Positions 11,401 through 64,000 of a stretch of DNA of 64,000 nucleotides are shown here, piece after piece. The notes below the pieces were generated by a model. The model was not told where the DNA came from, ran no database searches, and was given only the letters and a program-made list of their open reading frames with translations. The position numbers were made by a program, and so were the translations under genes. This DNA comes from Acutalibacteraceae bacterium (GTDB taxonomy: Bacteria; Bacillota; Clostridia; Oscillospirales; Acutalibacteraceae): NCBI GenBank assembly GCA_050953725.1, contig JBMNNB010000003.1, forward strand, positions 463,244 through 527,243, read 5' to 3'. Numbering within the stretch: the stretch's first letter is position 1; every line of letters starts with the position of its first letter.

Positions 11401-12633
11401 GTCGCTGGAGGTATCAATGAAGGAGTTAAGTAAGGTACCGACATCATTTGAAAGCAACAGCGAGTCAATTTTATCTACCGTCTGATTAAGCCGTGAAAGA
11501 GTTGCGGAATATGTAACGCCCTCTGTTACCTCTCTTGTAATCGGATATGTGAAGGGCATTTCGGTTGAATAGTACCAGTTCATCAGGTTGGCAATCTTAT
11601 CGCCGAAGAAGTGGACAAGCAGCTTGTCGGAGTGCTGAAGAAGGTCTTCCACATAGGGCTTGTATGTATTGCGCTCGGTGGCGAGCTGGGCTGTGGTATA
11701 GCCGGAATAATCCCTTGTCAGAAGCTGTGAGGTTGCGCCGAACAGGTTCATGTTGGCCTGCTGAAGGGCTACCTGGACATTGATTTCCTGATAGTTATAG
11801 GGAGCGCCCTGCGGAGCTTCGGTGATGATATCCGAAAGGACATAGTTTACGACTGTGCCTTTTTCGTTGGTGATTCTTGCGTGCTTCCAGGTATACTTTG
11901 TATATCTGACATTAATGCTGTTGGGCAGGCTTTCAACCGATTCATAGGCCATAAGAGCCTCGTCGATGTCCGTCTGAACAACGAAGCTGTAGTCATAGTA
12001 CCAGTTGACGACGCTGACGCCGAGCTGGCCTGCTATGAAGTTTGTCAAGATTGCGGAAACGTTGTAGTAAAGATATCTCTCATAATCAACGGGCTTGTAA
12101 AGAGTGACATATTCCATTACTGTCCTGACCTCGGTGGTCTGGATGTATGTACCGGGGTTGTTCGGGTCCTCGACAACAACGGAAACCTCCTTCTGAACGG
12201 GAATCTCCTCCCTGTAAGGCTCCATTACCGTAATTGTGTCGCCCATTCTCAAGGCAAGCTCCTGCTTTATCTCATTGGCAATCATTACGGCGTTGTAGCT
12301 GCCCACACCGTATTCCGTGCTCTTTATAAGATTAGCTATCTCATAAAATTTCTGAGCGGCAAGAGTGATGTCACCGTTAAGGTTGTCCCTTGCGGTAACG
12401 GTGGAATAAACCTTATATCCGCCGTTGGGAATAAGGTCGTCCTCATCCGTATAGTTGGTTACGGAATAGTTGGAAGTATCCCTTACATATTCATTTGAAA
12501 GCAATTCAGCAAGCTCATCATATTTTTCAGAAAGCCCGGTCTCCTGAGCTGCCCCGACGATTCCAACCGCTGCGGAGGAAATAAGCATCAACGCAGCCAG
12601 AAGGGCGCTCAAAATTTTAGTGGAACGCTTCAT
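8407..12633 (-). CDS. large secreted protein of unknown function (1,408 aa as listed)
   Basis: AAGGAG RBS before ATG 12633. Signal peptide MKRSTKILSALLAALMLISSAAVGIVGA. Acidic tract GGDDEDEEEEEDG. Contains an internal ~100 aa duplication. I recognise no domain family. Confidence 0.8.
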   Translation of the reverse strand: MKRSTKILSALLAALMLISSAAVGIVGAAQETGLSEKYDELAELLSNEYVRDTSNYSVTNYTDEDDLIPNGGYKVYSTVTARDNLNGDITLAAQKFYEIANLIKSTEYGVGSYNAVMIANEIKQELALRMGDTITVMEPYREEIPVQKEVSVVVEDPNNPGTYIQTTEVRTVMEYVTLYKPVDYERYLYYNVSAILTNFIAGQLGVSVVNWYYDYSFVVQTDIDEALMAYESVESLPNSINVRYTKYTWKHARITNEKGTVVNYVLSDIITEAPQGAPYNYQEINVQVALQQANMNLFGATSQLLTRDYSGYTTAQLATERNTYKPYVEDLLQHSDKLLVHFFGDKIANLMNWYYSTEMPFTYPITREVTEGVTYSATLSRLNQTVDKIDSLLLSNDVGTLLNSFIDTSSDDYKDSPIYGLKYTNGKELIEVLLKDFIFRDNIVTSLFLMLYPMVYEMLEDMADTLDNYTIGLYKELRDEGIYLQYQYVRDRLPAKYSNIKNHMNAAISQGYVTDPNKWVGFEEYLESLPKGVELDWGVDSAYDQKTAFINAMGAIFAPVEPLLWTLLGDVKLYIELAGQLAYVSVQRIEAYQKLIIPLFETLGITNFISWNDFKALRSHTDIMGAILNPIIDWVLNDVASKPISTITSILPNLSIFLTAKNGVSPVQNIINNINIHLEAKVSGIVVYNYDMPLRDVVDDFYPNLGGGINGVLKLVGGDDEDEEEEEDGFNIKYLPPILDRVLHTRGQIITNKVFPSGTQTRDVVVVYDQATGVDFRGQVLFAMLRWLLTGINYRAYNQNAQTWASKTLLESFGLDIADLDAQLGDLLGLPVTSKVAAEAIAGVAIHPNDVILALEEFFFPNENGKYPTDGSYVSNPYKYPMQEITYSPAIVEAKSFGTSAQYSDIWTKEKATYLAAAIPVLTERMLKVLKIEGLTDLEQYVNDMLAENVFTQEMLTNIAMMVYPAITGLNIDAILSVAAGLDYTPKTIAERMAYLNTRAGRPASEVQLALQNVARPDWENNLAYSNVYNKWDPALLFEHSFMPYIETVLEVNPETGEVETRTENNHVVVATSDRPLDWGFEDGDRAAWLDNLVALLSPFADIIQLLLADRDLNLVDLVHIPGYAGYQYAIIPLLEALSCQNVKTYAQYKAAISNPTTGAIDTFYLILNPLLSLFDRFISNPIGTALDILPNLMYFISIGGLNIVLNNLIHVVYVLLDILSPIIDATPLVNKFLQNLEIGGVKLGLSLPLELNINQLVDNIFAGFIGDGIEVGGSSVKLMLKLPNVDVTMLASGEPVYYEQRKGNKTMSRTMRPGVIYIQGDNGADLLTVIMKYFFSVLFYAENAEALGEYCTAYFNLSEEDSATLFEVLRYFNKQINEKRLGRPGSVDAVYGHTDDIPVYSGYSRAV

Positions 12634-12720
12634 GAAACATTCACTCCTTCGGTACCCATTTATTAAGATTTGTTAAAAGAGCATATCTCTCCATAATTCT
12701 TTAGACTTATATCCACTTTA

Positions 12721-12748
12721 ATTATAAAGGATTGGGACAAGATTTCAA
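12721..12748 (-). promoter_or_regulatory. candidate promoter of the 1,408-aa protein gene
   Basis: Minus strand: TTGAAA (12748-12743), 16-nt spacer, TATAAT (12726-12721). Confidence 0.45.
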
Positions 12749-12914
12749 GCGACAATACGGGGCAATTTGTCCATTAACATAACTTCTGACAATTTCGGTT
12801 TGTTCAGCTTGACCAAAATGAGGGTGTAAAATTCATCATTTTGCAGGGCCCGGTGCAGAATTTGGTTTTATTTTCATATCGCTTTGTGCGCCTAAAGACA
12901 ATATGTCCCCTGAA

Positions 12915-13272
12915 GCGCAGCGGGATATGACGAGCCGGCGGGGGGGCGCGGGTCGCAGGGTGAAGGCGGGGCGCAAGACGCAGGTGAGACGGGGTGAAGG
13001 GCGGCAGGCAAGTTGCCCGCTCCCCTCGCCTGCAAGCACGGTGTGGCGAACATCGGGTCGGGGCGCAGGCGGCGGGGGGTGCGGGTCGCAGGGTGCGGGT
13101 GCGGGCGGCGGCGGGGAGTGCCGTTGCGGGAATGGCGGGGCGGGAGTACCTCTCCCACGGGCGGGGGCGCAGGCGGCGGGGGGGCTGCCGTTCCATTCGG
13201 GGTTGGGGCGTGGTGCGGGGAGAAACAGCGGAGGGGTTGCTTTTCGCTTTCCTTTGGCTGGGGGGGTGGGCT
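12915..13272. repeat. G+C-rich, G-skewed repeat island A
   Basis: GGCGGGGGG(C/T)GCGGGTCGCAGGGTG occurs at about 12937 and 13070. GGGGCGCAGGCGGCGGGGGG occurs at about 13060 and 13165. All six frames give P/G/R/A-rich low-complexity ORFs. Confidence 0.8.
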
Positions 13273-13449
13273 TTGTGAAAAAAGAATATGCTGTTTTCTA
13301 AATAAACTTTCACAAACACTCTGCTTATGTTATAATGTTATCAGGTTTTCGGCGGTCTGATTGGGGTAATTATCAATCGGGCTGCTTTGGGTATAATAAA
13401 TGCCGGCATACGGCTTCTCACAATCGTAGATAAAATAGGATGTGAATAA

Positions 13450-14142
13450 GTGACGCAAAATCAGAAAGACACCGCAGTGGCGCTTATTAAAGCCGCTGTT
13501 GCCATGACCCTTTTCTTTATCGCAATTTTCAATTACAACGACCTTCGTAATGTGGATGTTGAGGGCATTGTGGCAAAGGCGGGCAGCATATATTCGGCGG
13601 CCCTGGTAGTGCTTATAATCTTCTTCGTAAAGGCAGTTTTGTTTATATTGCCCGCATCTTTAATCTATGTTGCGGTGGGCGCCGCCCTTTCGCCGATTGA
13701 TGCGGTTATCATAAATCTTCTGGGCATCGTGCTTGAGGTGACGGCCACTTACCTCCTCGGCCTCTTTCTCGGCGGAGCCTATGTGGAAAAGCTCCTCAGC
13801 AAGCGTAAAAAGACCCGCAAGCTTCTCGAAATGGAGCTTCAGAACAAGCCTCTGCTGCTTCTGGGCATACGCTTTCTGCCCGTCTTCCCCATTGACTTCG
13901 TAAGCCTTTTTTACGGTGCTTCAAAGGCGAATTTCCTTAAATACCTTCTGCTGTCCGTGGCGGGTCTTGCCCCACGGGTCATAGCATTTACAATACTCGG
14001 CGATGCGATTTTTGAGAAAATCCCCATGCACATAATTATCCTCGTTGTCATCTGCCTTATCCCCGTTTTCGCCGGCTGGACACTTTTCAAGAGCTTTGTG
14101 CTGGACAGGAGAAGACAGGAAAATCAGCCCCGCCCTGAGTAA
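13450..14142 (+). CDS. TVP38/TMEM64 (DedA-superfamily) membrane protein
   Basis: 230 aa, multi-TM, with LRFLPVFPIDFVSLFYGASK-type segments typical of SNARE-associated/DedA-like proteins. GTG start is uncertain. Confidence 0.5.
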   Translation: MTQNQKDTAVALIKAAVAMTLFFIAIFNYNDLRNVDVEGIVAKAGSIYSAALVVLIIFFVKAVLFILPASLIYVAVGAALSPIDAVIINLLGIVLEVTATYLLGLFLGGAYVEKLLSKRKKTRKLLEMELQNKPLLLLGIRFLPVFPIDFVSLFYGASKANFLKYLLLSVAGLAPRVIAFTILGDAIFEKIPMHIIILVVICLIPVFAGWTLFKSFVLDRRRQENQPRPE

Positions 14143-21694: not shown

Positions 21695-21839
21695 GTAATC
21701 AGAACCGAACAAATGTTCTGTTTGTGCGGCGAATCCCCGAACAGGAAAACCAAAAGTGGGGAGGATTAGCCTTCACGCTTAAAGCCGAAATCAATAGCCC
21801 CGTTGATTTCTTCCGCTCAGAAGCCGGGCTGCCCCTCTT

Positions 21840-22400
21840 GCCCTCAACCTGTATAAAGCGTCGCCCCGTGCGGCGGGCGGGGGGTGCACGAACGCCGAAC
21901 GGGTGCGGGCGGCAACAAAGCCCCGTGGTCGCTTTGCCCTTTTGGAGTATCGCCTATCCAGCGTGGGCGGGCGGAAATTGTACCGCACGCCGGCGGGCGG
22001 GGGTTGCCCCACCGTTGGGGGGTGCGAGAGGTGAACGCAAAGCCCCGTGTTCGCCTTGCCCCGATTGAAGCGTGTTGCCTATTCCGTGCGCGGGCGGGCT
22101 GGGGGGGTGCCCCACCGTCGGGCGGGTGCGAGAGGTGAACGCAAAGCCCCGTGGTCGCCTTGCCCTTTAGCGGTTGCCTATCCAGCGTGGGCGGGCGGAA
22201 ATTGTACCGCACGCCGGCGGGCGGGGGTTTCCCCTCCGTTGGTGGGAGGGGAACAGATACAAAACCCCGTGTTCGCCTTGCCCCGGTTGAGGTGTTAACC
22301 TACCCTTGCAGCGGGCGGGCTGGGGGGGTGCACGAACGCCGAACGGGTGCGGGCGGCGGACAATAAGCCCCTTGTTCGCCCTGCCCCGTGTTTCAGGCTT
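21840..22400. repeat. G+C-rich tandem-repeat island B (five 100-125 bp modules, super-period about 222-224 bp)
   Basis: TATCCAGCGTGGGCGGGCGGAAATTGTACCGCACGCCGGCGGGCGGGGG starts at 21955 and 22179. GTGCACGAACGCCGAACGGGTGCGGGCGGC starts at 21884 and 22328. GTGCGAGAGGTGAACGCAAAGCCCCGTG starts at 22022 and 22126. Confidence 0.85.
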
Positions 22401-22545
22401 ACCCTTTGCCCCGTGTGACATACACTTTACTTTGCCCCGTTTGAGTGTATGCGCTGTACCCCGTTTGCCTTTTTGCCCCGTTTGGGGTGTGACAATTCGC
22501 CCCGATTTCCACTCGTTATAAGCCCCGTTAAATAAGAACTCCCGT
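22383..22545 (+). repeat. iteron-like ladder of 8 direct (T)TGCCCCGT(T/G) boxes
   Basis: GCCCCGT-type cores start at 22383, 22408, 22434, 22458, 22475, 22499, 22522 and 22540, giving spacings of 25, 26, 24, 17, 24, 23 and 18 bp. Confidence 0.75.
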
Positions 22546-39358: not shown

Positions 39359-39392
39359 AAATATTTCAGATGAGACCAAATGGAATAAAAGT

Positions 39393-40112
39393 GTGCGGGC
39401 GAGGCTTGGCTCACGCTCACTCTTGACGATTTTCTTCCCTCGCCGGCGGGTCGTGCGAGCGGCGGGGCGAGGTGCGGGGAGATTGCTCGTCGTGCGGGCT
39501 TCGGCGGGGACTTCCTCCCACAACAGCAGGCGGGCGGTGGCGAAGAACGAAAAAAAAAGGGGCGGGGACGGCGGATTATTAGCCCCGTGCGGCAGGGCGG
39601 CGGTTTTTTCGCTCACCTCTCCCCATTGCAGCAAGGCAGGCAGGTGGGTGGAGTAAACGGCGTGCGGTGGCGGGGTGCGGGGAGATTGCTCGTCGTGCGG
39701 GCTTCGGCGGGGACTTCCTCCCACAACAGCAGGCGGGCGGTGGCGAAGAACGAAAAAAAAAGGGGCGGGGACGGCGGATTATTAGCCCCGTGCGGCAGGG
39801 CGGCGGTTTTTTCGCTCACCTCTCCCCATTGCAGCAAGGCAGGCAGGTGGGTGGAGTAAACGGCGTGCGGTGGCGGGGTGTCGCTCTCGTACGGCGCAAG
39901 AGGTGAAAGAAATAGGCGGAGACGGTGGGCGGAGCTGTCCGCTCCCCTCGCAATTGGATGACAGGGCGGGAAAAGAAAAAAGACGGGGCGTTCCCCTCGC
40001 CGGCGGGTCGTGCGAGCGGCGGGGCGGGGTGCGGCGGGGATGTACACTTCACTCGCAATCGGGTGCAGGCGGGTGGGCGCTCCCGTATGGGTGGGAGAGG
40101 GTGGATTCGGGC
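39393..40112. repeat. G+C-rich repeat island C with a perfect 203-bp tandem duplication
   Basis: 39471-39673 is identical by eye to 39674-39876 (the ORF track shows identical translations). A 33-bp direct repeat CCCTCGCCGGCGGGTCGTGCGAGCGGCGGGGCG occurs at 39437-39469 and 39994-40026. Confidence 0.9.
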
Positions 40113-40140
40113 ATGAAAAAGGGACGCATGATGCGTCCCT
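40113..40140 (-). terminator. Rho-independent terminator (beta-galactosidase)
   Basis: GGGACGCAT (40121-40129) pairs with ATGCGTCCC (40131-40139). The minus strand continues TTTTTC. Confidence 0.8.
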
Positions 40141-40172
40141 TCATTTGTGCGTTTTTTTGCCGTAGTTGCTTA

Positions 40173-50308: not shown

Positions 50309-52438
50309 TTAAAGTGTCTGGAGCTTTGCGGCTACACGAAGGATTATTCGGGCATCGGAGGCTTTGACGCCTGCCTCGCCGTCTGTGTTGGCCGAAAGCT
50401 GTTCAAGCTCGCCGAGGGTGGTTAATTTCGCCGCATGCCTTAATACCTGCCTTGCATCGCTTGCCAGAACCTTGCCGTCGCCGTCAATATCGCCGAGGAC
50501 AGCCAAAGTGAGCGTATCGACTACCTTGCCGCCTGCTATCAGATTAAGCTTTGCGCCCGAGCCGAAGGTCTTATCGCCTGACAGCAGCGTTCCGTTTTTG
50601 TCTCTCACTTCGAGTGTGCCGCCCTCAAAGTTCTTTAACAGGTCGCTTACCTTAGTGCCGGGCTTGACATTATAGACTATAGAGCCTGAGGTATTGAGCT
50701 TATATCCTGCGCCTGATTTCATTTTTATTACAGGCTCCTTAACGGTTACTGTGCATTGGGCTGTCTTGCTGCCGTCTGTTGTGGTTACGGTTATTACGGT
50801 CGTTCCTGTGCTTATGGCGGTAACAACGCCGTTTTCGTTAACCGTTGCAACCGCAGTGTTGCTCGAAGACCATGTGACTCTTTTATCAGTGGCGTCTGCG
50901 GGCGAAACTGTGGCATTCAGTGTTTTAGTCTCGCCGACACTCATTGTAAGGCTTGTCATGTTAAGGCTGACACCTGTGACAGCTATCTCGAGAGCGACAT
51001 GGGAAAGCCCTGCCAAGGTGGGATAGGGGTAGGCTGCCGAAGAGTCAATCATCCAGACAGTATCAAAGTCAAAACCGCCAAAACTCGCCGAATTTCTCAT
51101 CTGAGCATCGGTTAATGCAACCCCGAAGGAGTTTGTGGGATTTGAGACACTGGTATTAAGATAATAGCAGTTTGATATTGTGGAGGAGGAGTTAAATCCA
51201 ACCACGCCGCCGACCTCATTTATGCCCGAAACACTGCCGGTGTTATAACTGTCTGTGACTGTGGAGAAGAAGTTAGCTCCAACCACGCCGCCGACATAAT
51301 AAGAACCTGAAACCGTGCCGCTGTTATAGCTGTCTGTTACTGTGGCTCTGGAGTCGTTATGTCCGACCACGCCGCCGACCTCATTTATGCCCGAAACACT
51401 GCCGGTGTTATAACTGTTTGTCACTGTGGAGTTGTAGTAGTTATATCCCACCACGCCGCCGACATAATAAGAACCTGAAACCGTGCCGCTGTTATAGCTG
51501 GCTGTCACTGTGGAGTTGTCGTAGTTATATCCAACCACACCGCCGACATAATTGTTGCCCGAAACACTGCCGGTGTTATAGCTGTTTGTTATTGTGGAGC
51601 CGAATTTGTTATATCCAACCACGCCGCCGACAAAATAAGAACCTGAAACCGTGCCGCTGTTATAGCTGTTTGTTACTGTGGAATTCCGTTCGTTATATCC
51701 AACCACGCCGCCGACCTCATTTATGCCCGAAACACTGCCGGTGTTATAGCTGTCTGTGACTGTGGAGAAGAAGTTAGCTCCAACCACGCCCGCCGACCTC
51801 ATTATAGCCGGAACACAGCCTGCAAAACCGCATTCGAACAACGTGCCTTCATCGTTGTAACCGACAATGCCGCCGACAGATATATAGCCTTTGATATAGG
51901 ACATCTCAATTTCGACTTCTGAAACTGAGCCCTTAACAATCATTCCGAAAAACCCCTGATACGATTCATCGGTATCAATGTATATTCCGCTGATTTTGTG
52001 GTGGTCGCCTCTGTAATGTCCGTAAAAGGTAAAAGCTCTGTCGGCAATACTTCCGCCCGGATTATAGATAGCCTTGCCTATTGGCTTCCATTGTTTCGGG
52101 GACTTGCCCGCAGCTATGCCGGTTACCCTGCCGTCGCTGTCAAAGGTGAACATATCCTGTGTGTTCAGCACTATGTCCGCCGTCTGTTCAAAGTATTTGC
52201 CCTCTGAGTAATTTTTTATTTCCTGTGTGTTGACTGAAAGCTGAGCCAGATCCTTCGCCGTGGCGATTTTGTACGGGTCCGTTTTTGTTCCCTTGCCGCC
52301 CGAATATTTGGCGCTGCCGTTCACTGCGGGGAACGTGCCGTCCCAGACGCTTTGGGCCGCCGATGATTGAATTGACACAAAACCGATTAAAATCGCAAGA
52401 CACAGCAAAACCGCAAGACTTTTTCTGATTGCTTTCAT
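50309..52438 (-). CDS. secreted GLUG-repeat / Big_2 / dockerin surface protein
   Basis: Signal peptide MKAIRKSLAVLLCLAILIGFVSIQSSAA. About 10 GLUG-type repeats (VGGVVGYN...NSYNTGSVSG). One Big_2 domain (VTGVSLN...TVTV). C-terminal dockerin (GDIDGDGKVLASDARQVLR, NTDGEAGVKASDARIILR). GGAGGGG RBS before ATG 52438. Confidence 0.85.
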   Translation of the reverse strand: MKAIRKSLAVLLCLAILIGFVSIQSSAAQSVWDGTFPAVNGSAKYSGGKGTKTDPYKIATAKDLAQLSVNTQEIKNYSEGKYFEQTADIVLNTQDMFTFDSDGRVTGIAAGKSPKQWKPIGKAIYNPGGSIADRAFTFYGHYRGDHHKISGIYIDTDESYQGFFGMIVKGSVSEVEIEMSYIKGYISVGGIVGYNDEGTLFECGFAGCVPAIMRSAGVVGANFFSTVTDSYNTGSVSGINEVGGVVGYNERNSTVTNSYNSGTVSGSYFVGGVVGYNKFGSTITNSYNTGSVSGNNYVGGVVGYNYDNSTVTASYNSGTVSGSYYVGGVVGYNYYNSTVTNSYNTGSVSGINEVGGVVGHNDSRATVTDSYNSGTVSGSYYVGGVVGANFFSTVTDSYNTGSVSGINEVGGVVGFNSSSTISNCYYLNTSVSNPTNSFGVALTDAQMRNSASFGGFDFDTVWMIDSSAAYPYPTLAGLSHVALEIAVTGVSLNMTSLTMSVGETKTLNATVSPADATDKRVTWSSSNTAVATVNENGVVTAISTGTTVITVTTTDGSKTAQCTVTVKEPVIKMKSGAGYKLNTSGSIVYNVKPGTKVSDLLKNFEGGTLEVRDKNGTLLSGDKTFGSGAKLNLIAGGKVVDTLTLAVLGDIDGDGKVLASDARQVLRHAAKLTTLGELEQLSANTDGEAGVKASDARIILRVAAKLQTL

Positions 52439-52599: not shown

Positions 52600-52694
52600 T
52601 TAAAGCGTCTGGAGCTTTGCGGCCACACGAAGGATTATTCGTGCGTCGGAGGGTTTTACACCCGCCTCTCCGTCAGTGTTGTCGGGAAAGACAT
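52600..52694 (-). pseudogene. 3'-terminal remnant of a dockerin-protein paralogue
   Basis: About 90 bp, roughly 80% identical by eye to 50309-50400. Translates to FPDNTDGEAGVKPSDARIILRVAAKLQTL*, versus ANTDGEAGVKASDARIILRVAAKLQTL* in the intact gene. Similarity stops abruptly at repeat island D. Confidence 0.8.
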
Positions 52695-52835
52695 GGCGGG
52701 TGGGGATGCTGTCCTCTCCCTCGACTGTGCTGACGGAAGCGGATGGGGTGCGGGGCGGAACGCCTCCCCTTTTCCCGTCATGGAGGGGACGAGGGGCGTA
52801 CAGGCTGGGGTGGAGCGGATTCTGCCGTTAGGAAC
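52695..52835. repeat. G+C-rich island D (short member of the family)
   Basis: G-rich + strand with GGGGTGCGGGGCGG, CTCTCCCTCG and GGAGGGGACGAGGGGCG. Lies between the gene remnant and the CDGSH terminator. Confidence 0.55.
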
Positions 52836-52868
52836 AAAAAACGGCGGGAGGGGTTACCTTCCGCCGTG
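52834..52868 (-). terminator. Rho-independent terminator (CDGSH gene)
   Basis: ACGGCGG (52841-52847) pairs with CCGCCGT (52861-52867). The minus strand continues with T6. Confidence 0.65.
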
Positions 52869-52907
52869 TGGGTTATTCTGTTGGTCTGAGTTTTGCCTTT
52901 GGGTCTG

Positions 52908-57953: not shown

Positions 57954-58409
57954 CTAAATCTCCAAGGGTGAAGAATAGCCGCCGTTCGGATTTCGCACTA
58001 TATCCGCCCTGAGAGTCACGAAGCCGACCATTTTTATGCTGTCGGTCAGTCTTACATACTCCATCTTGCCGCTGCCGATTTCGAGGATGTCGAGATTTGT
58101 GTTAAACAGCAGCAGGTCCGTAATTTCAGAGAAAATCGTATGAAGCCTGTATCCGCCGATTCGCACGGGGTTATGTATGCTTATGTCGAATGTAGCTATC
58201 ATCTCCATAACGCCGTGTACCTTCTCGCCGTACTCGTCGTACTTCTGCTTTATGCTGGAGCTTTTTACGCCGATTGCAATGGTCGGGGCGATAATCGGCT
58301 CATTGTTCTGCCAGCGCGGGAACTCGGTCATAAGGTCATAGCCCTTGCCGTCAAGCTGCAGCGCCAGCCAGTTTTTAAGAGTTTCGGGAAAGGAATCAGT
58401 TATATACAT
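57954..58409 (-). CDS. phage head-tail joining region protein (unknown family)
   Basis: 151-aa ORF overlapping the upstream gene by 14 nt. Last gene of the head module. Confidence 0.45.
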   Translation of the reverse strand: MYITDSFPETLKNWLALQLDGKGYDLMTEFPRWQNNEPIIAPTIAIGVKSSSIKQKYDEYGEKVHGVMEMIATFDISIHNPVRIGGYRLHTIFSEITDLLLFNTNLDILEIGSGKMEYVRLTDSIKMVGFVTLRADIVRNPNGGYSSPLEI

Positions 58410-58743
58410 CTTGCCCCTCCATATCCTTTATTACCGCCCAGATATAGAACACGCTGTTGCCCTTATAGATTTTCTCGAATCTGTCCACAAGGAATCTCTT
58501 GCCCGCAGACTCGATATAATAGCCGCTCGGCAGATGCTCAAAGCTGTGCTCCGGGGGACCGATGTAAAGATAATAGCCGGAATCGATAACGCCGATTTCG
58601 GTGGGCGTTCCCTCAAGATACATCTTGTTCTTATATCTGAGCGGCTGTATGAAGGCTCTGAAGGACTTTGTGCTCCAGCCCGTTGTGTCCTTAATCCGGG
58701 TGTCCCTGCCGTATTTAGATAAAATCGCATTTACCGCTGCCAA
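58396..58743 (-). CDS. putative head-closure / head-tail adaptor protein
   Basis: 115 aa. Assigned by position after the gp6-like connector. Confidence 0.4.
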   Translation of the reverse strand: MAAVNAILSKYGRDTRIKDTTGWSTKSFRAFIQPLRYKNKMYLEGTPTEIGVIDSGYYLYIGPPEHSFEHLPSGYYIESAGKRFLVDRFEKIYKGNSVFYIWAVIKDMEGQDVYN

Positions 58744-58768
58744 AAAAGCACCTCCCCTTATTTGCCCG

Positions 58769-59131
58769 CTATATTCGCCCGAATAAAAAGGCGTCGTCCT
58801 TTAAAAGATGCGCCGCCTCCTTAAAGGCCGCCGCCTCAAGGTCTGAGGCTGCCTGAAGGGTCTCCTTATAGCCCTTTTTGACCGTCACGTCCCCTGCCCT
58901 GAAGCTTGTGAACTCCTGGTCTGTGGCGGAGCGTGAGAGCAGGAACCTATGCAGGGCAGTCATGGCGCAAAGCATGATAATGAGCTGATTACCCGAATCC
59001 CTTTTGTATTTAAGCCGACGCTCAACACTCAATGCCGCAGCCTTGCAGAAGGGCAGCAGGGCGGGTGCATCCTCGTCCGATATGCTTATCACCTGCCTGA
59101 GCCTTTCAAAAACCTCCCACTGACTTATCAT
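58769..59131 (-). CDS. gp6-like head-tail connector protein
   Basis: 120 aa. N-terminus ISQWEVFERLRQVISISDEDAPALLPFCKAAALSVERRL is typical of the phage gp6-like connector family. Lies directly after the capsid gene. Confidence 0.55.
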   Translation of the reverse strand: MISQWEVFERLRQVISISDEDAPALLPFCKAAALSVERRLKYKRDSGNQLIIMLCAMTALHRFLLSRSATDQEFTSFRAGDVTVKKGYKETLQAASDLEAAAFKEAAHLLKDDAFLFGRI

Positions 59132-59185
59132 AAACTCACCTTTTTCTTAAAATCTGCCCTGTACCTGTCGGCACAGGGCAAGGGC

Positions 59186-60199
59186 TTATGCTCTCTCCAG
59201 AACGATAACCTTGGAGGCGTCGTCGAAAATCTTGGAGAAGCCGAAGGTGCAGGTGATGGCCGCTCTCTCAAGCTGTCTGTCAATGAGCTTGTCATACTCG
59301 GTCACAATGCCGCCGGCTCTTACCAGCTCAAGGGCGCAGTTTTTGTCAAGGCCTATAAGGACATCCGCAGCGAAGGAGGGGATTTTGACAAGCTCTGCTC
59401 CGAGGGGTGTCACGAGCTTGCCCGTGGCGTGGAAGGAAAGTCCCGCAACGGAGTCTCTGAACTCCTCCATGGCAAGTATCGTCCTCAAGACTTCGGGCGT
59501 GGCGAGTATGGCGTTGAGCTCATAGGGGTCGAACTTGCCCCAGAAATCAAGAAGGTCTGAGTAAGTAAGAACGCCTTCCTCCTTTGTATCCACGATTTCT
59601 GCCGGATTTTCGTTGCCGTCGCCTAAGAGAATGGTGGCAATGGCGTGCTGAACCTGACTTCTTGCAATCTGTGCGCCTATCTGCTTTAAGGTGACGGTGA
59701 ACAGGTCAATCCTCTGGAAGCGGATAGCTTCGTATGAGGCCACAAGCATCCTGCCCATTTTCTTTAGGCGGACAAGGTTCTCCTTGGTCTTGATGCTGGT
59801 TTCGGGGATAATAGCGCCCTCGGCAACCATTTTAAGCTCCTTGTCGTCCTCTGAAGGAATGGAGGTGATTGTCCTGTAATCAAGTGCGTCGATGTCTGTG
59901 ACCGTTGCGACGATTTTCGGGAGGATATTCGCATCCTCCATGCCCTGCCTTACGGCGCGGGAGACATATTCGGGGAAGAGGGCTGCGGACTCGGAGGTAC
60001 TGAAGAACTTCTCTACCTTGTCGCTGCCGGGGCCGCCCACTCTGATGTCGAATCTTTTAAGCTGACGCTGGTATGCGTCAAGACCCTCAAGGGCGGTACC
60101 CTTGTAATTCTCGGAAGGGTCAAGTGCCTCAAGAGCCGCCGTAAAGCCGCCCTTTGCCGAGTACATGCCCTTTTCGAGCCTGATGTTTTCATAAGACAT
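59186..60199 (-). CDS. major capsid protein
   Basis: 337 aa counted from ATG 60199 (GAGAGGAG RBS). Assigned by position after the protease/scaffold and small head protein. Composition is typical of a capsid protein. Confidence 0.65.
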   Translation of the reverse strand: MSYENIRLEKGMYSAKGGFTAALEALDPSENYKGTALEGLDAYQRQLKRFDIRVGGPGSDKVEKFFSTSESAALFPEYVSRAVRQGMEDANILPKIVATVTDIDALDYRTITSIPSEDDKELKMVAEGAIIPETSIKTKENLVRLKKMGRMLVASYEAIRFQRIDLFTVTLKQIGAQIARSQVQHAIATILLGDGNENPAEIVDTKEEGVLTYSDLLDFWGKFDPYELNAILATPEVLRTILAMEEFRDSVAGLSFHATGKLVTPLGAELVKIPSFAADVLIGLDKNCALELVRAGGIVTEYDKLIDRQLERAAITCTFGFSKIFDDASKVIVLERA

Positions 60200-60218
60200 A
60201 GTATTTCTCCTCTCTGAA

Positions 60219-60563
60219 TTAAAGAATAATTCCGATTGTGCCGTCTGTCTCGTTGACACTGAGAATAAAGACCTTGCGGCCGCTGTCGTCTATGGAGACG
60301 GCGCCGTCGTCGGCACCTGTAATGCCCTGATAACCGACGCTTGCATCCTCAATGTTCGCACAGGGTAAGGTGGCAAAGCCGCCCACCTGAACAGCCGCAT
60401 AGCCCTCCCTGACGCTTAAAGCAAGTCCGAAGACATCGGTGCCTTCAGAAGCGGCTGTGACCTCGTTGTTGCCGGAGATGCTGACTGCGACGCCCGCCGT
60501 AACCGAATCCGAGGCCTGCAAGGTAATAATTTTCTCGTCAAAGCCTTTTAATGAAACTAACAT
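60219..60563 (-). CDS. small head protein (decoration or scaffold-associated?)
   Basis: 114 aa, beta-rich, lying between the protease/scaffold and capsid genes. Confidence 0.35.
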   Translation of the reverse strand: MLVSLKGFDEKIITLQASDSVTAGVAVSISGNNEVTAASEGTDVFGLALSVREGYAAVQVGGFATLPCANIEDASVGYQGITGADDGAVSIDDSGRKVFILSVNETDGTIGIIL

Positions 60564-60581
60564 AAAAACATCCTTTCTTAC

Positions 60582-61556
60582 TTAAATTCTGAACCCGCTG
60601 TTGTCGGGTGAGGCTGTTTTAGCCTCGGGAATAAGCTGAGGAGCAAAATCAAGGCCATCCTCATCCGCAAAGCCCTTAACAAGTGCTTCCAAATCCTTTG
60701 CGGGAAGGCTTTCCAGAACGGTTTTGAAAACGGCGGTGTCCATTTTGGGCAGCCTTACTGCCGACAGGGACAGCGCCTTTTTCATAAGGCTGCTTTTGTA
60801 ATGCTCGCCGTCCGCAGCCGCCCTTTCGAGGGTTGCGATATAGCTTTTAAGCTGCGCCGTTTCAAAGGCGTCGAGCACCGTTTCACCCTTTTGCTCACCG
60901 AGTTTTTTAAGTATGTCTGTCACGCTTTTTTCACCTCTTTTGCTTTCCTCTGTTTTTCCGAACTGCTTTGTTACACGGGCGCCCTTCTGGGCGGGAACCG
61001 CTACAAAGGACCACTCGTATGCGTCGACAGCATCATAGAGAATCCTGTGACACAGCCTGCCCTCGACCTGTGTGCCGGGTCTGTGGGAGCAGGAAGAGTT
61101 TTCCGCCTTACAGACAGAGCAGACAGCCCTTTTGACACTGCAGGATACGCTGACCTCACGCTTAATGCCCGCTTCGATTTCAGCTATCAGGCTCTTGTTT
61201 TTTTCGTTTCTCAGCATATAGCAGTGTGCCTTGAGATAGGTATAAGGCTCCCCTGCGGAGGTTGTCCGCTCTTTGTCCGTAATAAGCTCAGTGTCGAATA
61301 TCCTTGCGGTCTGGTTTTCGGCCCTCATGCTGTGGTCGAAGATGCCCGTCACGCCCTTGAACAGCTCCTTTAAGGCTTTAAGGCTCTCAACAGAGAAGCG
61401 CTCAAAGTCCCTGTCTATCTCGTTGTCACAGAGGATGACGCTGAAGACGAAGACCTCCTCCTCAGACAGCGGCTTTAAGGAGTAGCTGTTGATTTTCTCA
61501 ATGTCCGATTTCGTAACGGAAAAAACAGCTTCATTTAATCTCTTTTCTTTTTTCAA
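60582..61556 (-). CDS. prohead protease / scaffolding protein
   Basis: 324 aa, immediately after portal with a 4-nt overlap. The N-terminal half has DRDFERF...GIFDHS and a Cys cluster; the C-terminal half is helical and scaffold-like. Confidence 0.5.
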   Translation of the reverse strand: MKKEKRLNEAVFSVTKSDIEKINSYSLKPLSEEEVFVFSVILCDNEIDRDFERFSVESLKALKELFKGVTGIFDHSMRAENQTARIFDTELITDKERTTSAGEPYTYLKAHCYMLRNEKNKSLIAEIEAGIKREVSVSCSVKRAVCSVCKAENSSCSHRPGTQVEGRLCHRILYDAVDAYEWSFVAVPAQKGARVTKQFGKTEESKRGEKSVTDILKKLGEQKGETVLDAFETAQLKSYIATLERAAADGEHYKSSLMKKALSLSAVRLPKMDTAVFKTVLESLPAKDLEALVKGFADEDGLDFAPQLIPEAKTASPDNSGFRI

Positions 61557-62749
61557 AAAGTTTCCTCCTGTTCCGTTAAGCTCTCATCAGTGACGATTTC
61601 AGGCTCTAACCCCTGCTCGATTTCGGCGGCTCTTGCGTTGTTGAGCCTTGCCTTTGACAGCTCCACCTCGTCCTGAAGGCTGATTTCGTTCCACTTTACA
61701 GAAAAGCCGCCTTTAAGGCCGTTAAGCCTGATATACGTGCCGACGACCCTCTGAAGCACCGGATTTAAAAGCTTTCTGTAAAACTGCAGCTCGCTTGTGA
61801 GCATGTCGGTCTGCTGGGCGGCCATTCGCTCCGTGGTGGACCAGTTAAGTCCCAGCATAAAGGGCGGCAGGCCGAGCTTTGCTATTATCTGCTCGAGCAG
61901 CTGCCTGACGGGGACCTCGCTGTCAAGAACCTGATTGTCCGCACCGATTACTTTGATGTCCACATCGCCCACGGCAATGAAGTCCTTGATTTCGCTGCCG
62001 CTCTGCATGGCCGCCGACCACTCGGAGGCAATCTGCATGGCCCTCTCTTTGGCGTAGAGCTTGTCATTAGGGTCGTTCTTCGGTCTGTAAGTCACCGCAT
62101 AGCGCAGATTCCCCACACGCTCGAAGTTAAGGCCGATTGTGTTGTAAATCTTCATCAGCACACTGCTTATAAATGGCAGACCCTTTAATATGGAGTTGCC
62201 CTGAAGGCTGCCCGCATCGGGATTTAGCAGTGTCAGAAGGATAAGCTCCTGATGCCGCACGGGTACGGGCTGTGAGCCGGTCATGGTGCAGACAAGCACC
62301 TTTGAGCTGTCACTCTTGTCCCTTGTGAGCACTATGTCCCTTAAATCCGCCCGATACAGCGACATTTCTGCGGGCGAAGCCCTGCCCGGAAGGATTTCGG
62401 CCACCGCAGTGCCGTATGTAAGAAGCTGCTCGAAATAAGCGCTTACGAAGCTGTGAATACCCCGCTGGCAGCCGTCGACGACCACATTTTTCAGAAATTC
62501 ATCGACCTGCCTTTGCGTGTATGAGTTCTCGCAGCGAATCTCAAAGCCGCCTATGAGCCTTGCTAACTTCCTTATGCCCGCATCGATAATGGGAACGCTC
62601 TCTCTGAGGGTCTTGTAGAGATTTGCGTCGCCGTGAAAGCTGCACATATTCATATAGTCATCGAAAAAGCTCTTCTGCCCTTTAGCCCTTGTCTGGGGAG
62701 CGGCTGCCGCCCCCGTTGATAAGGGCTCTTTTTTGCTGAACAGTCCCAA
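61553..62749 (-). CDS. phage portal protein
   Basis: 398 aa, with size and position typical of portal. TTG start follows GAGGTG. Confidence 0.7.
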   Translation of the reverse strand: MGLFSKKEPLSTGAAAAPQTRAKGQKSFFDDYMNMCSFHGDANLYKTLRESVPIIDAGIRKLARLIGGFEIRCENSYTQRQVDEFLKNVVVDGCQRGIHSFVSAYFEQLLTYGTAVAEILPGRASPAEMSLYRADLRDIVLTRDKSDSSKVLVCTMTGSQPVPVRHQELILLTLLNPDAGSLQGNSILKGLPFISSVLMKIYNTIGLNFERVGNLRYAVTYRPKNDPNDKLYAKERAMQIASEWSAAMQSGSEIKDFIAVGDVDIKVIGADNQVLDSEVPVRQLLEQIIAKLGLPPFMLGLNWSTTERMAAQQTDMLTSELQFYRKLLNPVLQRVVGTYIRLNGLKGGFSVKWNEISLQDEVELSKARLNNARAAEIEQGLEPEIVTDESLTEQEETF

Positions 62750-62865
62750 ATTCTCACCTCAATTTTCAAAATTAACCCCAGCCCGCCCATTAAACTGCGA
62801 TGGCAGAGCGCAGGGTGTCGGAAAGCCCGAACCTCCGCAACGCATGGAAAGCCCTGCCCTGAACC

Positions 62866-63800
62866 GAACCTAAGTCAAGCCCCGTTTGCCGCCCCGCACA
62901 TCAGACGGCGGAGGGGGGAAGACGGCGGAGGGGGAAAGGCGGCGGGAGGGGGGGCAACGGGAAACATTGACCCCGTACACCGCATGCCGCCCGCCTGTCC
63001 GCCTACAAGCGGCGTGGGGGGGGTGGAGACGTAGCACCGCACACCGCAATCCCGCATGCCCGCCGACGGTGATTTCTTTTTTCTTCCCGCCCCGCAAATC
63101 AGGCGGCGGAGGGGGAAGACGGCGGAGGGGGAAAGGCGGCGGGAGGGGGGCAACGGGAAACATTGACCCCGTACACCGCATGCCGCCCGCCTGTCCGCCT
63201 ACAAGCGGCGTGGGGGGGGTGGAGACGTAGCACCGCACACCGCAATCCCGCATGCCCGCCGACGGTGATTTCTTTTTTATCCCCGCCCCGCAAATCAGAC
63301 GGCGGAGGGGGAAGACGGCGGAGGGGCGGGAGGGAAACCCGACGCCGCAATCCCGCATGCCCGCCGACGTGATTTCTTTTTTCCCCGCCCCGCAAATCAG
63401 ACGGCGGGGGGGGAAGAGGCGGAGGGGGCGGGAGGCGAAAAGCCCGCACACCGCAATCCCGCATGCCCGCCGACGGTGATTTCTTTTTTCTCCCCGCCCC
63501 GCACATCAGACGGCGGAGGGGGAAACGGCGAAAAGGCGGCGAGGGGGGGCAACGGGAAACATTGACCCCGTACACCGCATGCCGCCCGCCTGTCCGCATA
63601 CAAGCGGCGTGGGGGGGGTGGAGACGAAACCCCGCACGCCGCAATCCCGCATGCCCGCCGACGGTGATTTCTTTTTGCTCACCGCCCCGCACATCAGGCG
63701 GCGGAGGGGGAAGACGGCGGAGGGGGCGGGAGGAGAAAAGCCCGCACGCCGAAAACAGGAAAAACCCTGCCCCACGCCGCCCCGCCTGCCGCACTTCCCC
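62866..63800. repeat. G+C-rich tandem-repeat island E (six units: three long of 188-198 bp, two short of 102-109 bp, one partial)
   Basis: GCCCCGCA(C/A)ATCAG anchors at 62891, 63089, 63285, 63387, 63496 and 63684. Five of the six units end in GGTGATTTCTTTTT(T), or a 1-nt variant. About 70% G+C in line 63001-63060 (hand count 42/60). Confidence 0.9.
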
Positions 63801-63816
63801 GCTGCCCTGCGGTCAA

Positions 63817-64000
63817 TCAAGCCCTGCGGCGGACTGCGCCTGAAGCAAGGGCGAAGAAGGCTTCGTCGCCGCCGTCGCTTAGTACGGTGCTGACAAAATA
63901 GCGCATATCGTCCATGGCGTGGTCGTGCTCCTTCCTTACGCTGTCCTTCGTCTGCGCCGTGTCCCACCTGTAAAGACCGAACTCCCGTATAATGTCCTTG
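63817..64000 (-). CDS. terL: terminase large subunit, C-terminal end (5' part outside window)
   Basis: The minus-strand frame reads KDIIREFGLYRWDTAQTKDSVRKEHDHAMDDMRYFVSTVLSDGGDEAFFALASGAVRRRA* with stop at 63819-63817. YRWD...DHAMDxxRY is the characteristic C-terminal motif of large terminases. Not in the ORF track because its start lies outside the window. Confidence 0.75.
   Translation of the reverse strand, partial: KDIIREFGLYRWDTAQTKDSVRKEHDHAMDDMRYFVSTVLSDGGDEAFFALASGAVRRRA

Follow-up and report, generated by a model that had tools for sequence, protein, structure and literature searches.

What is a long array of GC-rich tandem repeats doing between two phage-type head genes that lie side by side elsewhere? 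The question is raised by one end of a 64,000-nucleotide stretch of the genome of an Acutalibacteraceae bacterium (GenBank assembly GCA_050953725.1, contig JBMNNB010000003.1, positions 463,244 to 527,243; hereafter the window, meaning this stretch at its full length), where the stop of the large terminase gene (terL, at 63817) is separated from the start of the portal gene (at 62749) by a gap of 1067 nt. A preliminary description of the window had given these two gene ends and had taken the DNA between them to be non-coding, and both statements hold. It had also called the location atypical, and indeed terL and portal abut in relatives, with a gap of 71 nt in a sister lineage (portal identity 80%), and with overlapping small terminase (terS), terL and portal genes in relatives at ~50% (L001 and L002). 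We consider that the array is likely to be a locus-specific, non-coding, GC-rich minisatellite (variable-number tandem repeat, VNTR). It is a tandem structure whose copy number varies among near-identical strains, copy numbers of the window and of all other alleles having been read from assemblies.

Analysis with the repeat finder TRF identified a single tandem array at 62889-63726, with a period of 196 nt in 4.2 copies (score 1036) and a nested period of 102 nt in 2.8 copies. The head motif GCCCCGCAMATCAGRCGGCGG is present as an exact match at 62891, 63089, 63285, 63387, 63496 and 63684, which are the six anchors of the preliminary description, and the tail CCGCAATCCCGCATGCCCGCCGACGG is found five times, closing units 1 to 5 as had been proposed, with a 1-nt deletion in the copy of unit 3. 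Neither motif was matched in any shuffled sequence (0 shuffles each), and neither has a copy in the remaining 63 kb of the window. The spacings from head to head are 198, 196, 102, 109 and 188 nt. When the six units were aligned with MAFFT, an extra block of 86-88 nt (previously estimated at ~90 bp) was seen in units 1, 2 and 5 and was missing from units 3, 4 and 6, the last of these being a partial short unit that decays to unique sequence beside terL. In all, the 1067-nt gap holds six heads and five tails, together with three extra blocks of ~87 nt, with all units in the same orientation and abutting head to tail. It lacks unique interspersed sequence, in agreement with the earlier view that it is not a clustered regularly interspaced short palindromic repeat (CRISPR) array. 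The repeats stop short of filling the gap, contrary to the earlier view, as unique or degenerate sequence takes up ~130 nt next to portal and ~80 nt next to terL.

Read in the sense direction, the composite unit has an A-tract and the 25-nt tail, followed by either a linker or the ~87-nt block that only some units carry, then by the 16-nt sub-repeat in one to four copies, and lastly by a head that forms a GC hairpin of 10-11 bp. The sub-repeats are themselves recognized by TRF as small arrays, with a period of 17 nt in 2.9 copies and a period of 16 nt in 2.7 copies. The GC content of the array is 68%, as compared to 50% for the genome, and its plus strand carries 16 G-runs of at least 5 nt and no C-run of that length. 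Coordinates of all units and of the flanking elements are listed in Table 1.

The same locus was compared among variants on long contigs within the 90%-identity cluster of the window's portal. Copy number spans 1 to ~11 units, and the order of short and long units differs among alleles. In the module code used here, the letters s, H, T and L stand for the 16-nt sub-repeat, the head hairpin, the tail and the long block, and a hyphen for the A-tract. The shortest gap, of 276 nt (L038), reads ssH, with one head; that of L034 (306 nt) reads ssssH, one head preceded by four sub-repeats; that of L037 (474 nt) reads sH-TLssH, with two heads; and that of L043 (495 nt) reads ssH-TssH-TssH, which corresponds to three short units. 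The window (1067 nt) reads ssH-TLsH-TH-TssH-TLssH-TLssH, with six heads, and the largest gap, of 1582 nt (L044), holds ten scored heads, 8-9 tails and 3-4 long blocks, or ~10-11 units. In the error-rich assemblies L035 and L036 the gaps measure ~612 and ~811 nt. Variation is nested at three levels: C/G-runs differ in length, the 16-nt sub-repeats in number, and the 100-nt and 190-nt units in both number and order. The strains that carry these alleles are nearly identical in the neighbouring genes: over 4816 nt of head genes, each of L033, L034, L037 and L038 shows 1-2 substitutions relative to the window (99.96-99.98% identity; L043 and L044 lie outside this comparison), and the last 184 nt of terL show 0 differences from the window in L034, L037 and L038.

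The short alleles are not simple assembly collapses, since the junction TTTTCGGCGTACGGGCTTTTCGCCGCC of L038 unites segments that share far below 31 nt, the four-fold sub-repeat of L034 is found in no unit of the window, and L037 has a private head variant, GCGGAGCGGGG. The portal-side junction of the array is reproduced exactly in the Logan short-read contigs L005-L008 and L032, and the terL-side junction in the Logan contig L021. An identical portal is encoded by Logan contigs from at least five other samples, all of which end ~170 nt upstream of the portal gene, ~30 nt into the first unit, and most short-read contigs likewise break ~30 nt inside the repeat. Both junctions exist in nature, because the Logan contigs stop there as a de Bruijn assembler would at a tandem repeat. 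We note that one 1.94-Mb scaffold (L033; GCA_900198705.1, FZPS01000057.1) has a run of N at 5700-5830, exactly at the array, and links the portal gene to unrelated upstream genes, with neither terS nor terL; the repeat seems to have led to a wrong join during scaffolding.

The array is non-coding. Taken as unit lengths, the five spacings given above do not keep a reading frame, and the 231-aa open reading frame (ORF) of the array has no homologue among 5.8 billion proteins. A conserved mini-ORF in each unit (MRDCGVRAFRLPPPPPSSPSAV, ATG...TGA) was considered and discarded, as it is in frame in some units only, shifts with the length of the C-run and is not preceded by a Shine-Dalgarno sequence.

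The preliminary description had suggested a structured RNA array, which is not borne out by searches and folding. No Rfam family matches the whole window at gathering score, nor were tRNAs found in it; with E values of up to 10 allowed, the best Rfam match was mir-483, which scored 22 bits (E = 0.48) where the gathering score is 60. Whole units fold with z-scores of -1.1 to +0.26, both strands considered. Covariation was calculated with RNAalifold on sets made up of the six window units or of nine short units from several alleles, and gave terms of +2.7, +4.0 and -0.04 kcal/mol with 0-1 compensatory pairs, although near-identical paralogous units confer low power on this calculation. The only locally notable structure in the unit is the head hairpin, which has a folding energy of -19.2 kcal/mol on the sense strand (z = -2.1), a value equalled by 6 of 200 shuffles. 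Its pairs are invariant or altered on one side only across units, and among 19 unit variants there is almost no change in either the hairpin or the 25-nt tail.

A transcription insulator had also been put forward, and a resemblance to Rho utilization (rut) sites had been pointed out; the insulator role did not gain support either. Scans of both strands of the array for consensus promoters or terminators gave none. Intrinsic terminators were considered on either strand and rejected, since on the sense strand the head hairpin precedes an A-tract and on the plus strand the T-run lies 9 nt past a long imperfect stem. The sense (minus) strand had been described as C-rich and G-poor: C-rich patches are indeed present, with 44-50% C per 78-nt window, but it is not G-poor, as these patches contain 21-29% G. 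A C/G ratio of at least 2 is reached in 7% of array windows versus 3% of the background, and the rut-like character is weak.

The G-tracts that had been pointed out on the plus strand do stand up to analysis. In the array, G4Hunter marks 15 segments with scores of at least 1.5, of which 8 reach 2.0 or more, all of them on the plus strand, which is the template for the head genes. One G-quadruplex motif is strict (loops of 1-7 nt) and 4 are relaxed (loops of up to 12 nt). The array thus has the features of a G-quadruplex-forming repeat in terms of sequence potential, and on one strand only.

The array is restricted to one lineage. A blastn comparison to 50,697 phage records gave no match, an exact 26-mer of the array was absent from viral contigs, and an exact 21-mer gave one unrelated chance match in Joint Genome Institute (JGI) metagenome contigs. 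A locus search based on the portal yielded nothing among viral contigs and only relatives at 48-53% among genome contigs, and nhmmer profiles built from 19 distinct units detected no further copy in the masked window, the sister lineage or the distant relatives. A dispersed mobile element, such as a miniature inverted-repeat transposable element (MITE) or a repetitive extragenic palindrome (REP), was also considered and rejected, since a second copy is absent and no terminal inverted repeats or target duplication could be seen by eye.

The sister lineage carries a GC-rich insert of its own in another place. While the gap between terS and terL measures 17 nt in the window's lineage, it is occupied in the sister lineage by a 330-nt non-coding GC-rich insert (L009, 4327-4654), which carries repeated GGACGATACACCCCCAC(T/G)GCGGCGGG motifs and has a 46-nt duplication/deletion polymorphism among assemblies (334 versus 288-294 nt). 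Homology of this insert to the array was examined and rejected: short strings are shared by eye (CCTACAAGCGG, CCGAACC...TTTGCCG), but blastn did not rise above chance and nhmmer found nothing.

Close to the array, the terL translation ends in ...DHAMDDMRYFVSTVLSDGGDEAFFALASGAVRRRA*, with a C-terminus that is 100% identical to that of terL in L021 and in L034/L037/L038; the full-length terL of these same loci matches Pfam Terminase_6N/6C. The gene is intact (421 aa) in L034, L037, L038, L043 and L044. In L021 (sample SRR29050539), a 1-nt deletion in a C-run at ~1105-1140 (GTGGA-CCCTCTGCC, in the IVDPSA motif) splits terL into ORFs of 323 and 83 aa, which could reflect either a real frameshift or an assembly error. 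The terL-proximal flank of the array (63741..63816) is identical in L021, L034, L037, L038 and L043 and is partly swapped for an extra unit in L044, and the portal-proximal spacer is identical across every contig of the window's lineage. A consensus promoter was looked for in that spacer and none was found.

Table 1. Coordinates of the array units, their sub-elements and the adjoining genes, as positions in the window.
Feature	Coordinates	Strand	Remarks
Portal gene, 398 aa	61553..62749	-	Pfam Phage_portal E = 1.5e-6 (below gathering score); PHROG 30703 portal protein E = 1.3e-124
Portal-proximal unique spacer	62750..62882	-	Ribosome-binding site GAGGTGAGAA ahead of TTG start
Unit 1 (long, 198 nt)	62883..63080	-	Extra block 62933-63020; head fused to portal-side flank
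Unit 2 (long, 196 nt)	63081..63276	-	Extra block 63130-63216
Unit 3 (short; head-to-head period 102 nt)	63277..63381	-	1-nt deletion in tail
Unit 4 (short; head-to-head period 109 nt)	63382..63487	-	
Unit 5 (long, 188 nt)	63488..63675	-	Extra block 63530-63615
Unit 6 (partial, short)	63676..63740	-	Two 16-nt sub-repeats and head hairpin
Head hairpin, example	63280..63312	-	Sense CCCCCUCCGCC-GUCUGAUUU-GCGGGGCGGGG; most conserved element of each unit
Head hairpin, other copies	~62886-62918, 63084-63116, 63382-63414, 63491-63523, 63679-63711	-	
16-17-nt sub-repeat, sense CCCCCTCCGCCGTCTT	62903..62953	-	2-3 copies per unit; second example 63104-63149
terL-proximal array flank	63741..63816	-	Unique/degenerate unit remnant; small CAGGG-TTTTT-CCTG hairpin
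Large terminase gene terL, 3' end	63817..64000	-	Last 60 codons and stop 63819-63817; gene leaves window

The gene cluster in which the array resides is a head-only capsid cluster. Its order is glgB; terS, terL and portal; genes for a 324-aa protein, a 114-aa structural protein and the major capsid protein; genes for three small products (120, 115 and 151 aa); and a pot-like ABC transporter. This order is common to L034, L037, L038 and L043 and to the sister lineage (L009-L018, L022), and in the window the cluster covers 57954-64000 and continues beyond. No tail, lysis, integrase or replication genes were found in it. It had been taken for a phage head module, a framing that has to be replaced by that of a tail-less, integrase-less head cluster fixed between glgB, directly upstream of terS, and the ABC transporter, at the downstream edge. 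Between lineages, the head genes have a synonymous divergence (dS) of 1.0-1.7, matching that of the ABC-transporter genes beside them (1.2-1.65), and a ratio of nonsynonymous to synonymous divergence (dN/dS) of 0.09-0.22, which together indicate that the cluster has been inherited with the chromosome under purifying selection. Phage-inducible chromosomal islands of the capsid-forming type (cfPICIs) carry an integrase, a regulator and a primase-replicase in addition to terS, terL, portal, capsid and head-tail connector genes, and have no tail or holin genes (PMC10085698). The cluster described here resembles their head half, without the integrase, regulator and primase half that defines them (PMC10085698). 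It is neither a complete prophage nor a complete cfPICI, and it looks like a domesticated capsid module, either similar to a gene transfer agent or derived from the head half of a cfPICI.

The array is not the only GC-rich element in this region. Further apparently non-coding islands, with a GC content of 64-70% versus 50%, are located at 12879-13285, 21820-22520 and 39387-40144, with a smaller one at ~52600-52900. They sit between ordinary chromosomal genes and carry their G-tracts on the plus strand only; ~37 of the 43 G4Hunter matches of the window lie in islands or in the array, all on that strand. A relationship among the islands was considered and rejected, as they have in common only G-rich strings of 13-19 nt (E = 0.005-0.6), which reflect composition and not homology. 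When the first island was compared, over 12633-13450, to eight other assemblies (L024-L031), G-run lengths changed at six or more sites while the flanking genes were almost invariant, and a 64-bp deletion (13114-13177) was present in L031. Such islands come and go and act as mutational hot spots, and among those of this region the terL-portal array seems to have expanded the most.

Other observations concern individual islands. The one between the genes for an AAA_14/DUF4143 ATPase and a beta-galactosidase includes, at 39462-39880, a 203-nt unit in 2.1 copies with 99% identity; in the strain comparison of this 39-40 kb island, no contigs with the exact neighbour protein were found. At 21797-22530, the heptamer GCCCCGT is repeated 10 times on the plus strand within 730 nt, out of 14 plus-strand occurrences in the window, partly inside ~120-nt units of the form AAGCCCCGTG(G/T)TCGCCTTGCCC...GGGCGGGC; this cluster, upstream of divergent genes, resembles an array of iterated sites. 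In the sister lineage (L022, 19038-19252), a GC-rich island with many C-tracts (CCCGCCCCGCCCCGC...) lies past the terminator of an SBP gene, between the SBP and CDGSH genes. Its counterpart in the window is 95 nt only, so that islands of this kind are gained or lost in a lineage-specific manner. Two further repeats involve a 749-aa Glug/Big_2 surface protein: its gene has a tandem coding repeat of 84 nt (also 168 and 252 nt) at 51190-51804, and just upstream of the gene start, 81 nt (52601-52681) are 88% identical to its own 3' end (50310-50390; E = 4e-18) and may be the remnant of a neighbouring paralogue.

How such an array could arise and persist is suggested by its layout. Units would be gained, lost and reshuffled through replication slippage and unequal recombination between units, with slippage probably acting also on the 16-nt sub-repeats and on the G/C runs, and unit turnover is probably favoured by the hairpin-prone and G-quadruplex-prone nature of the sequence. 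The array is probably carried passively in the terL-portal transcript, as intercistronic RNA, because it holds no promoter or terminator signal, and its effect on fitness is probably small or nil because the head genes remain intact across the range of 1 to ~11 units. We infer that the array is close to neutral. The preliminary description had held that random variation between strains, combined with a lack of transcription or binding, would indicate neutral repeat expansion; the first half of this proposition is what the assemblies display, since both copy number and sequence vary between strains, and it is on this half that the comparison bears. Several points weigh against a near-neutral minisatellite. 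Copy number could tune expression; the near-invariance of the head hairpin, which folds better than 97% of shuffles, and of the tail could reflect constraint as well as recent homogenisation; the presence in two lineages of a variable GC-rich insert beside terL, on opposite sides of the gene, may be more than coincidence; and the SPAdes and JGI assemblies (L034, L043) may under-count units, all copy numbers being assembly-based.

If copy number did tune expression, the array would be a contingency-like spacer in which the number of GC hairpins and C-rich tracts sets how much transcription or translation reaches the portal and capsid genes. This could operate through Rho-dependent attenuation, RNA stability or a G-quadruplex roadblock on the template strand, and capsid output would be heritable and reversible. 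In favour of this, the operon around the array is subject to purifying selection (dN/dS 0.09-0.22), and since no consensus promoter is seen between array and portal, head-gene expression requires transcription across the array; in addition, each unit offers a hairpin of -19 kcal/mol and a patch of 44-50% C, G4Hunter scores of at least 1.5 cluster on the template (plus) strand, copy number is highly variable, and a different variable insert flanks terL on its other side in the sister lineage. We nevertheless regard such tuning as unlikely, given that an attenuator placed ahead of structural genes would cut the very proteins needed most, that a terminator-like site is absent from the array, and that the C-rich patches retain 21-29% G, with C/G of at least 2 in 7% of windows against 3% in the background. 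A broader form of the idea, which we find distinctly unlikely, is that the variable GC-rich inserts flanking terL constitute a fast-switching control element of a domesticated tail-less capsid cluster, and that the G-tract islands of this genome represent a new class of hypermutable regulatory spacers in Acutalibacteraceae. If it were true, the balance between terminase and head proteins would be governed by expansion and contraction of hairpin- and G-quadruplex-prone units, and cells of one strain would differ heritably but reversibly in their particle production.

The remaining explanations fare less well, among them the protein-binding array that the preliminary description had also suggested. 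It is very unlikely that the 16-nt sub-repeats or the head hairpins serve as putative binding sites for TerS (as in a pac site), for partition proteins or for nucleoid proteins: although the sub-repeat is iterated two to four times per unit, the array adjoins the terminase genes and GC-rich repeats (GCGGCGGG motifs) immediately follow terS in the sister lineage, the number of such sites would range from ~2 to more than 20 among near-identical strains, no detectable sequence is common to the inserts of both lineages, more distant relatives have no spacer at all, and the motif occurs nowhere else in the sequence examined. An array of structured small RNAs, with each unit having its own transcription start or being processed from the operon transcript, is highly improbable in view of the missing Rfam match, the whole-unit z-scores of -1.1 to +0.26, covariation terms that are zero or positive with 0-1 compensatory pairs, the absence of per-unit promoters or terminators, and the lack of homologous units outside the window's lineage; the high GC content (68% versus 50% for the genome), the conserved head hairpin and CCUCC motifs able to pair with Shine-Dalgarno sequences are the features that would fit it. 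That the repeats were created or inflated by the assembler is barely credible, because both junctions are found again in numerous independent assemblies that come from different samples and assemblers, as is the unit sequence with its tails and long blocks, even if the G-run length differences between units 1 and 2 resemble homopolymer noise and the copy number of the window itself is that of its assembly.

The array is a highly discriminating strain marker for an uncultured Acutalibacteraceae lineage of anaerobic digesters, and it explains the breaks and mis-scaffolding of short-read assemblies between terL and portal. It also serves as a reminder that proximity to phage packaging genes does not by itself make a striking repeat a device for packaging or an RNA device. 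Both the head-only capsid cluster under purifying selection and the unstable GC-rich G-tract islands may be of more interest than the array.

The array can be set against several known systems. It resembles phage pac and cosB sites in having short repeated motifs near terminase genes; pac and cos sites, however, are conserved, do not vary in number inside a phage lineage and are located in or beside terS, whereas the array is downstream of terL, has 1 to ~11 units and is absent from relatives. CRISPR arrays are likewise regularly repeated and non-coding, but here unique spacers are lacking and units of 100-200 nt follow each other head to tail. In enterobacteria, REPs and the bacterial interspersed mosaic elements (BIMEs) they form are GC-rich hairpins clustered in the intercistronic spacers of operons and co-transcribed with the genes. 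REPs are palindromes of ~35 nt that alternate in orientation, occupy hundreds of loci and have a link to REP-associated tyrosine transposases (RAYTs), while the unit of the array is confined to one locus, has a single orientation and is 3-6 times longer.

A nearer parallel is offered by mycobacterial interspersed repetitive units (MIRUs), which carry short ORFs overlapping the stop and start codons of the flanking genes. The array differs from them in having no frame-preserving ORF, and also in its composite 100-/190-nt unit with a nested 16-nt repeat and in a GC content 18 percentage points above that of the genome. MIRUs measure 46-101 bp and occupy 41 loci, 12 of them polymorphic (PMC3914561). 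Like them, the array consists of tandem repeats of tens to more than 100 nt between co-directional genes, with a copy number that varies among close strains; MIRUs are one unit family spread over many loci, whereas the unit of the array is at one locus (as checked in 63 kb of the window and at related loci). The human minisatellites CEB1 and CEB25 are GC-rich, have G-tracts on one strand, are prone to form G-quadruplexes and are unstable (PMC3486850). The array is similar to them as an unstable GC-rich tandem array with G4Hunter matches on one strand, with the qualification that CEB1 and CEB25 are eukaryotic and that the G-quadruplexes of the array, and any part they may have in its instability, are predicted ones. 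With tandem units within the ~10-200-nt range, a strain-variable copy number in the assemblies and no coding function, the array has the generic features of a minisatellite or VNTR, and its closest known kind is the bacterial intergenic minisatellite/VNTR.

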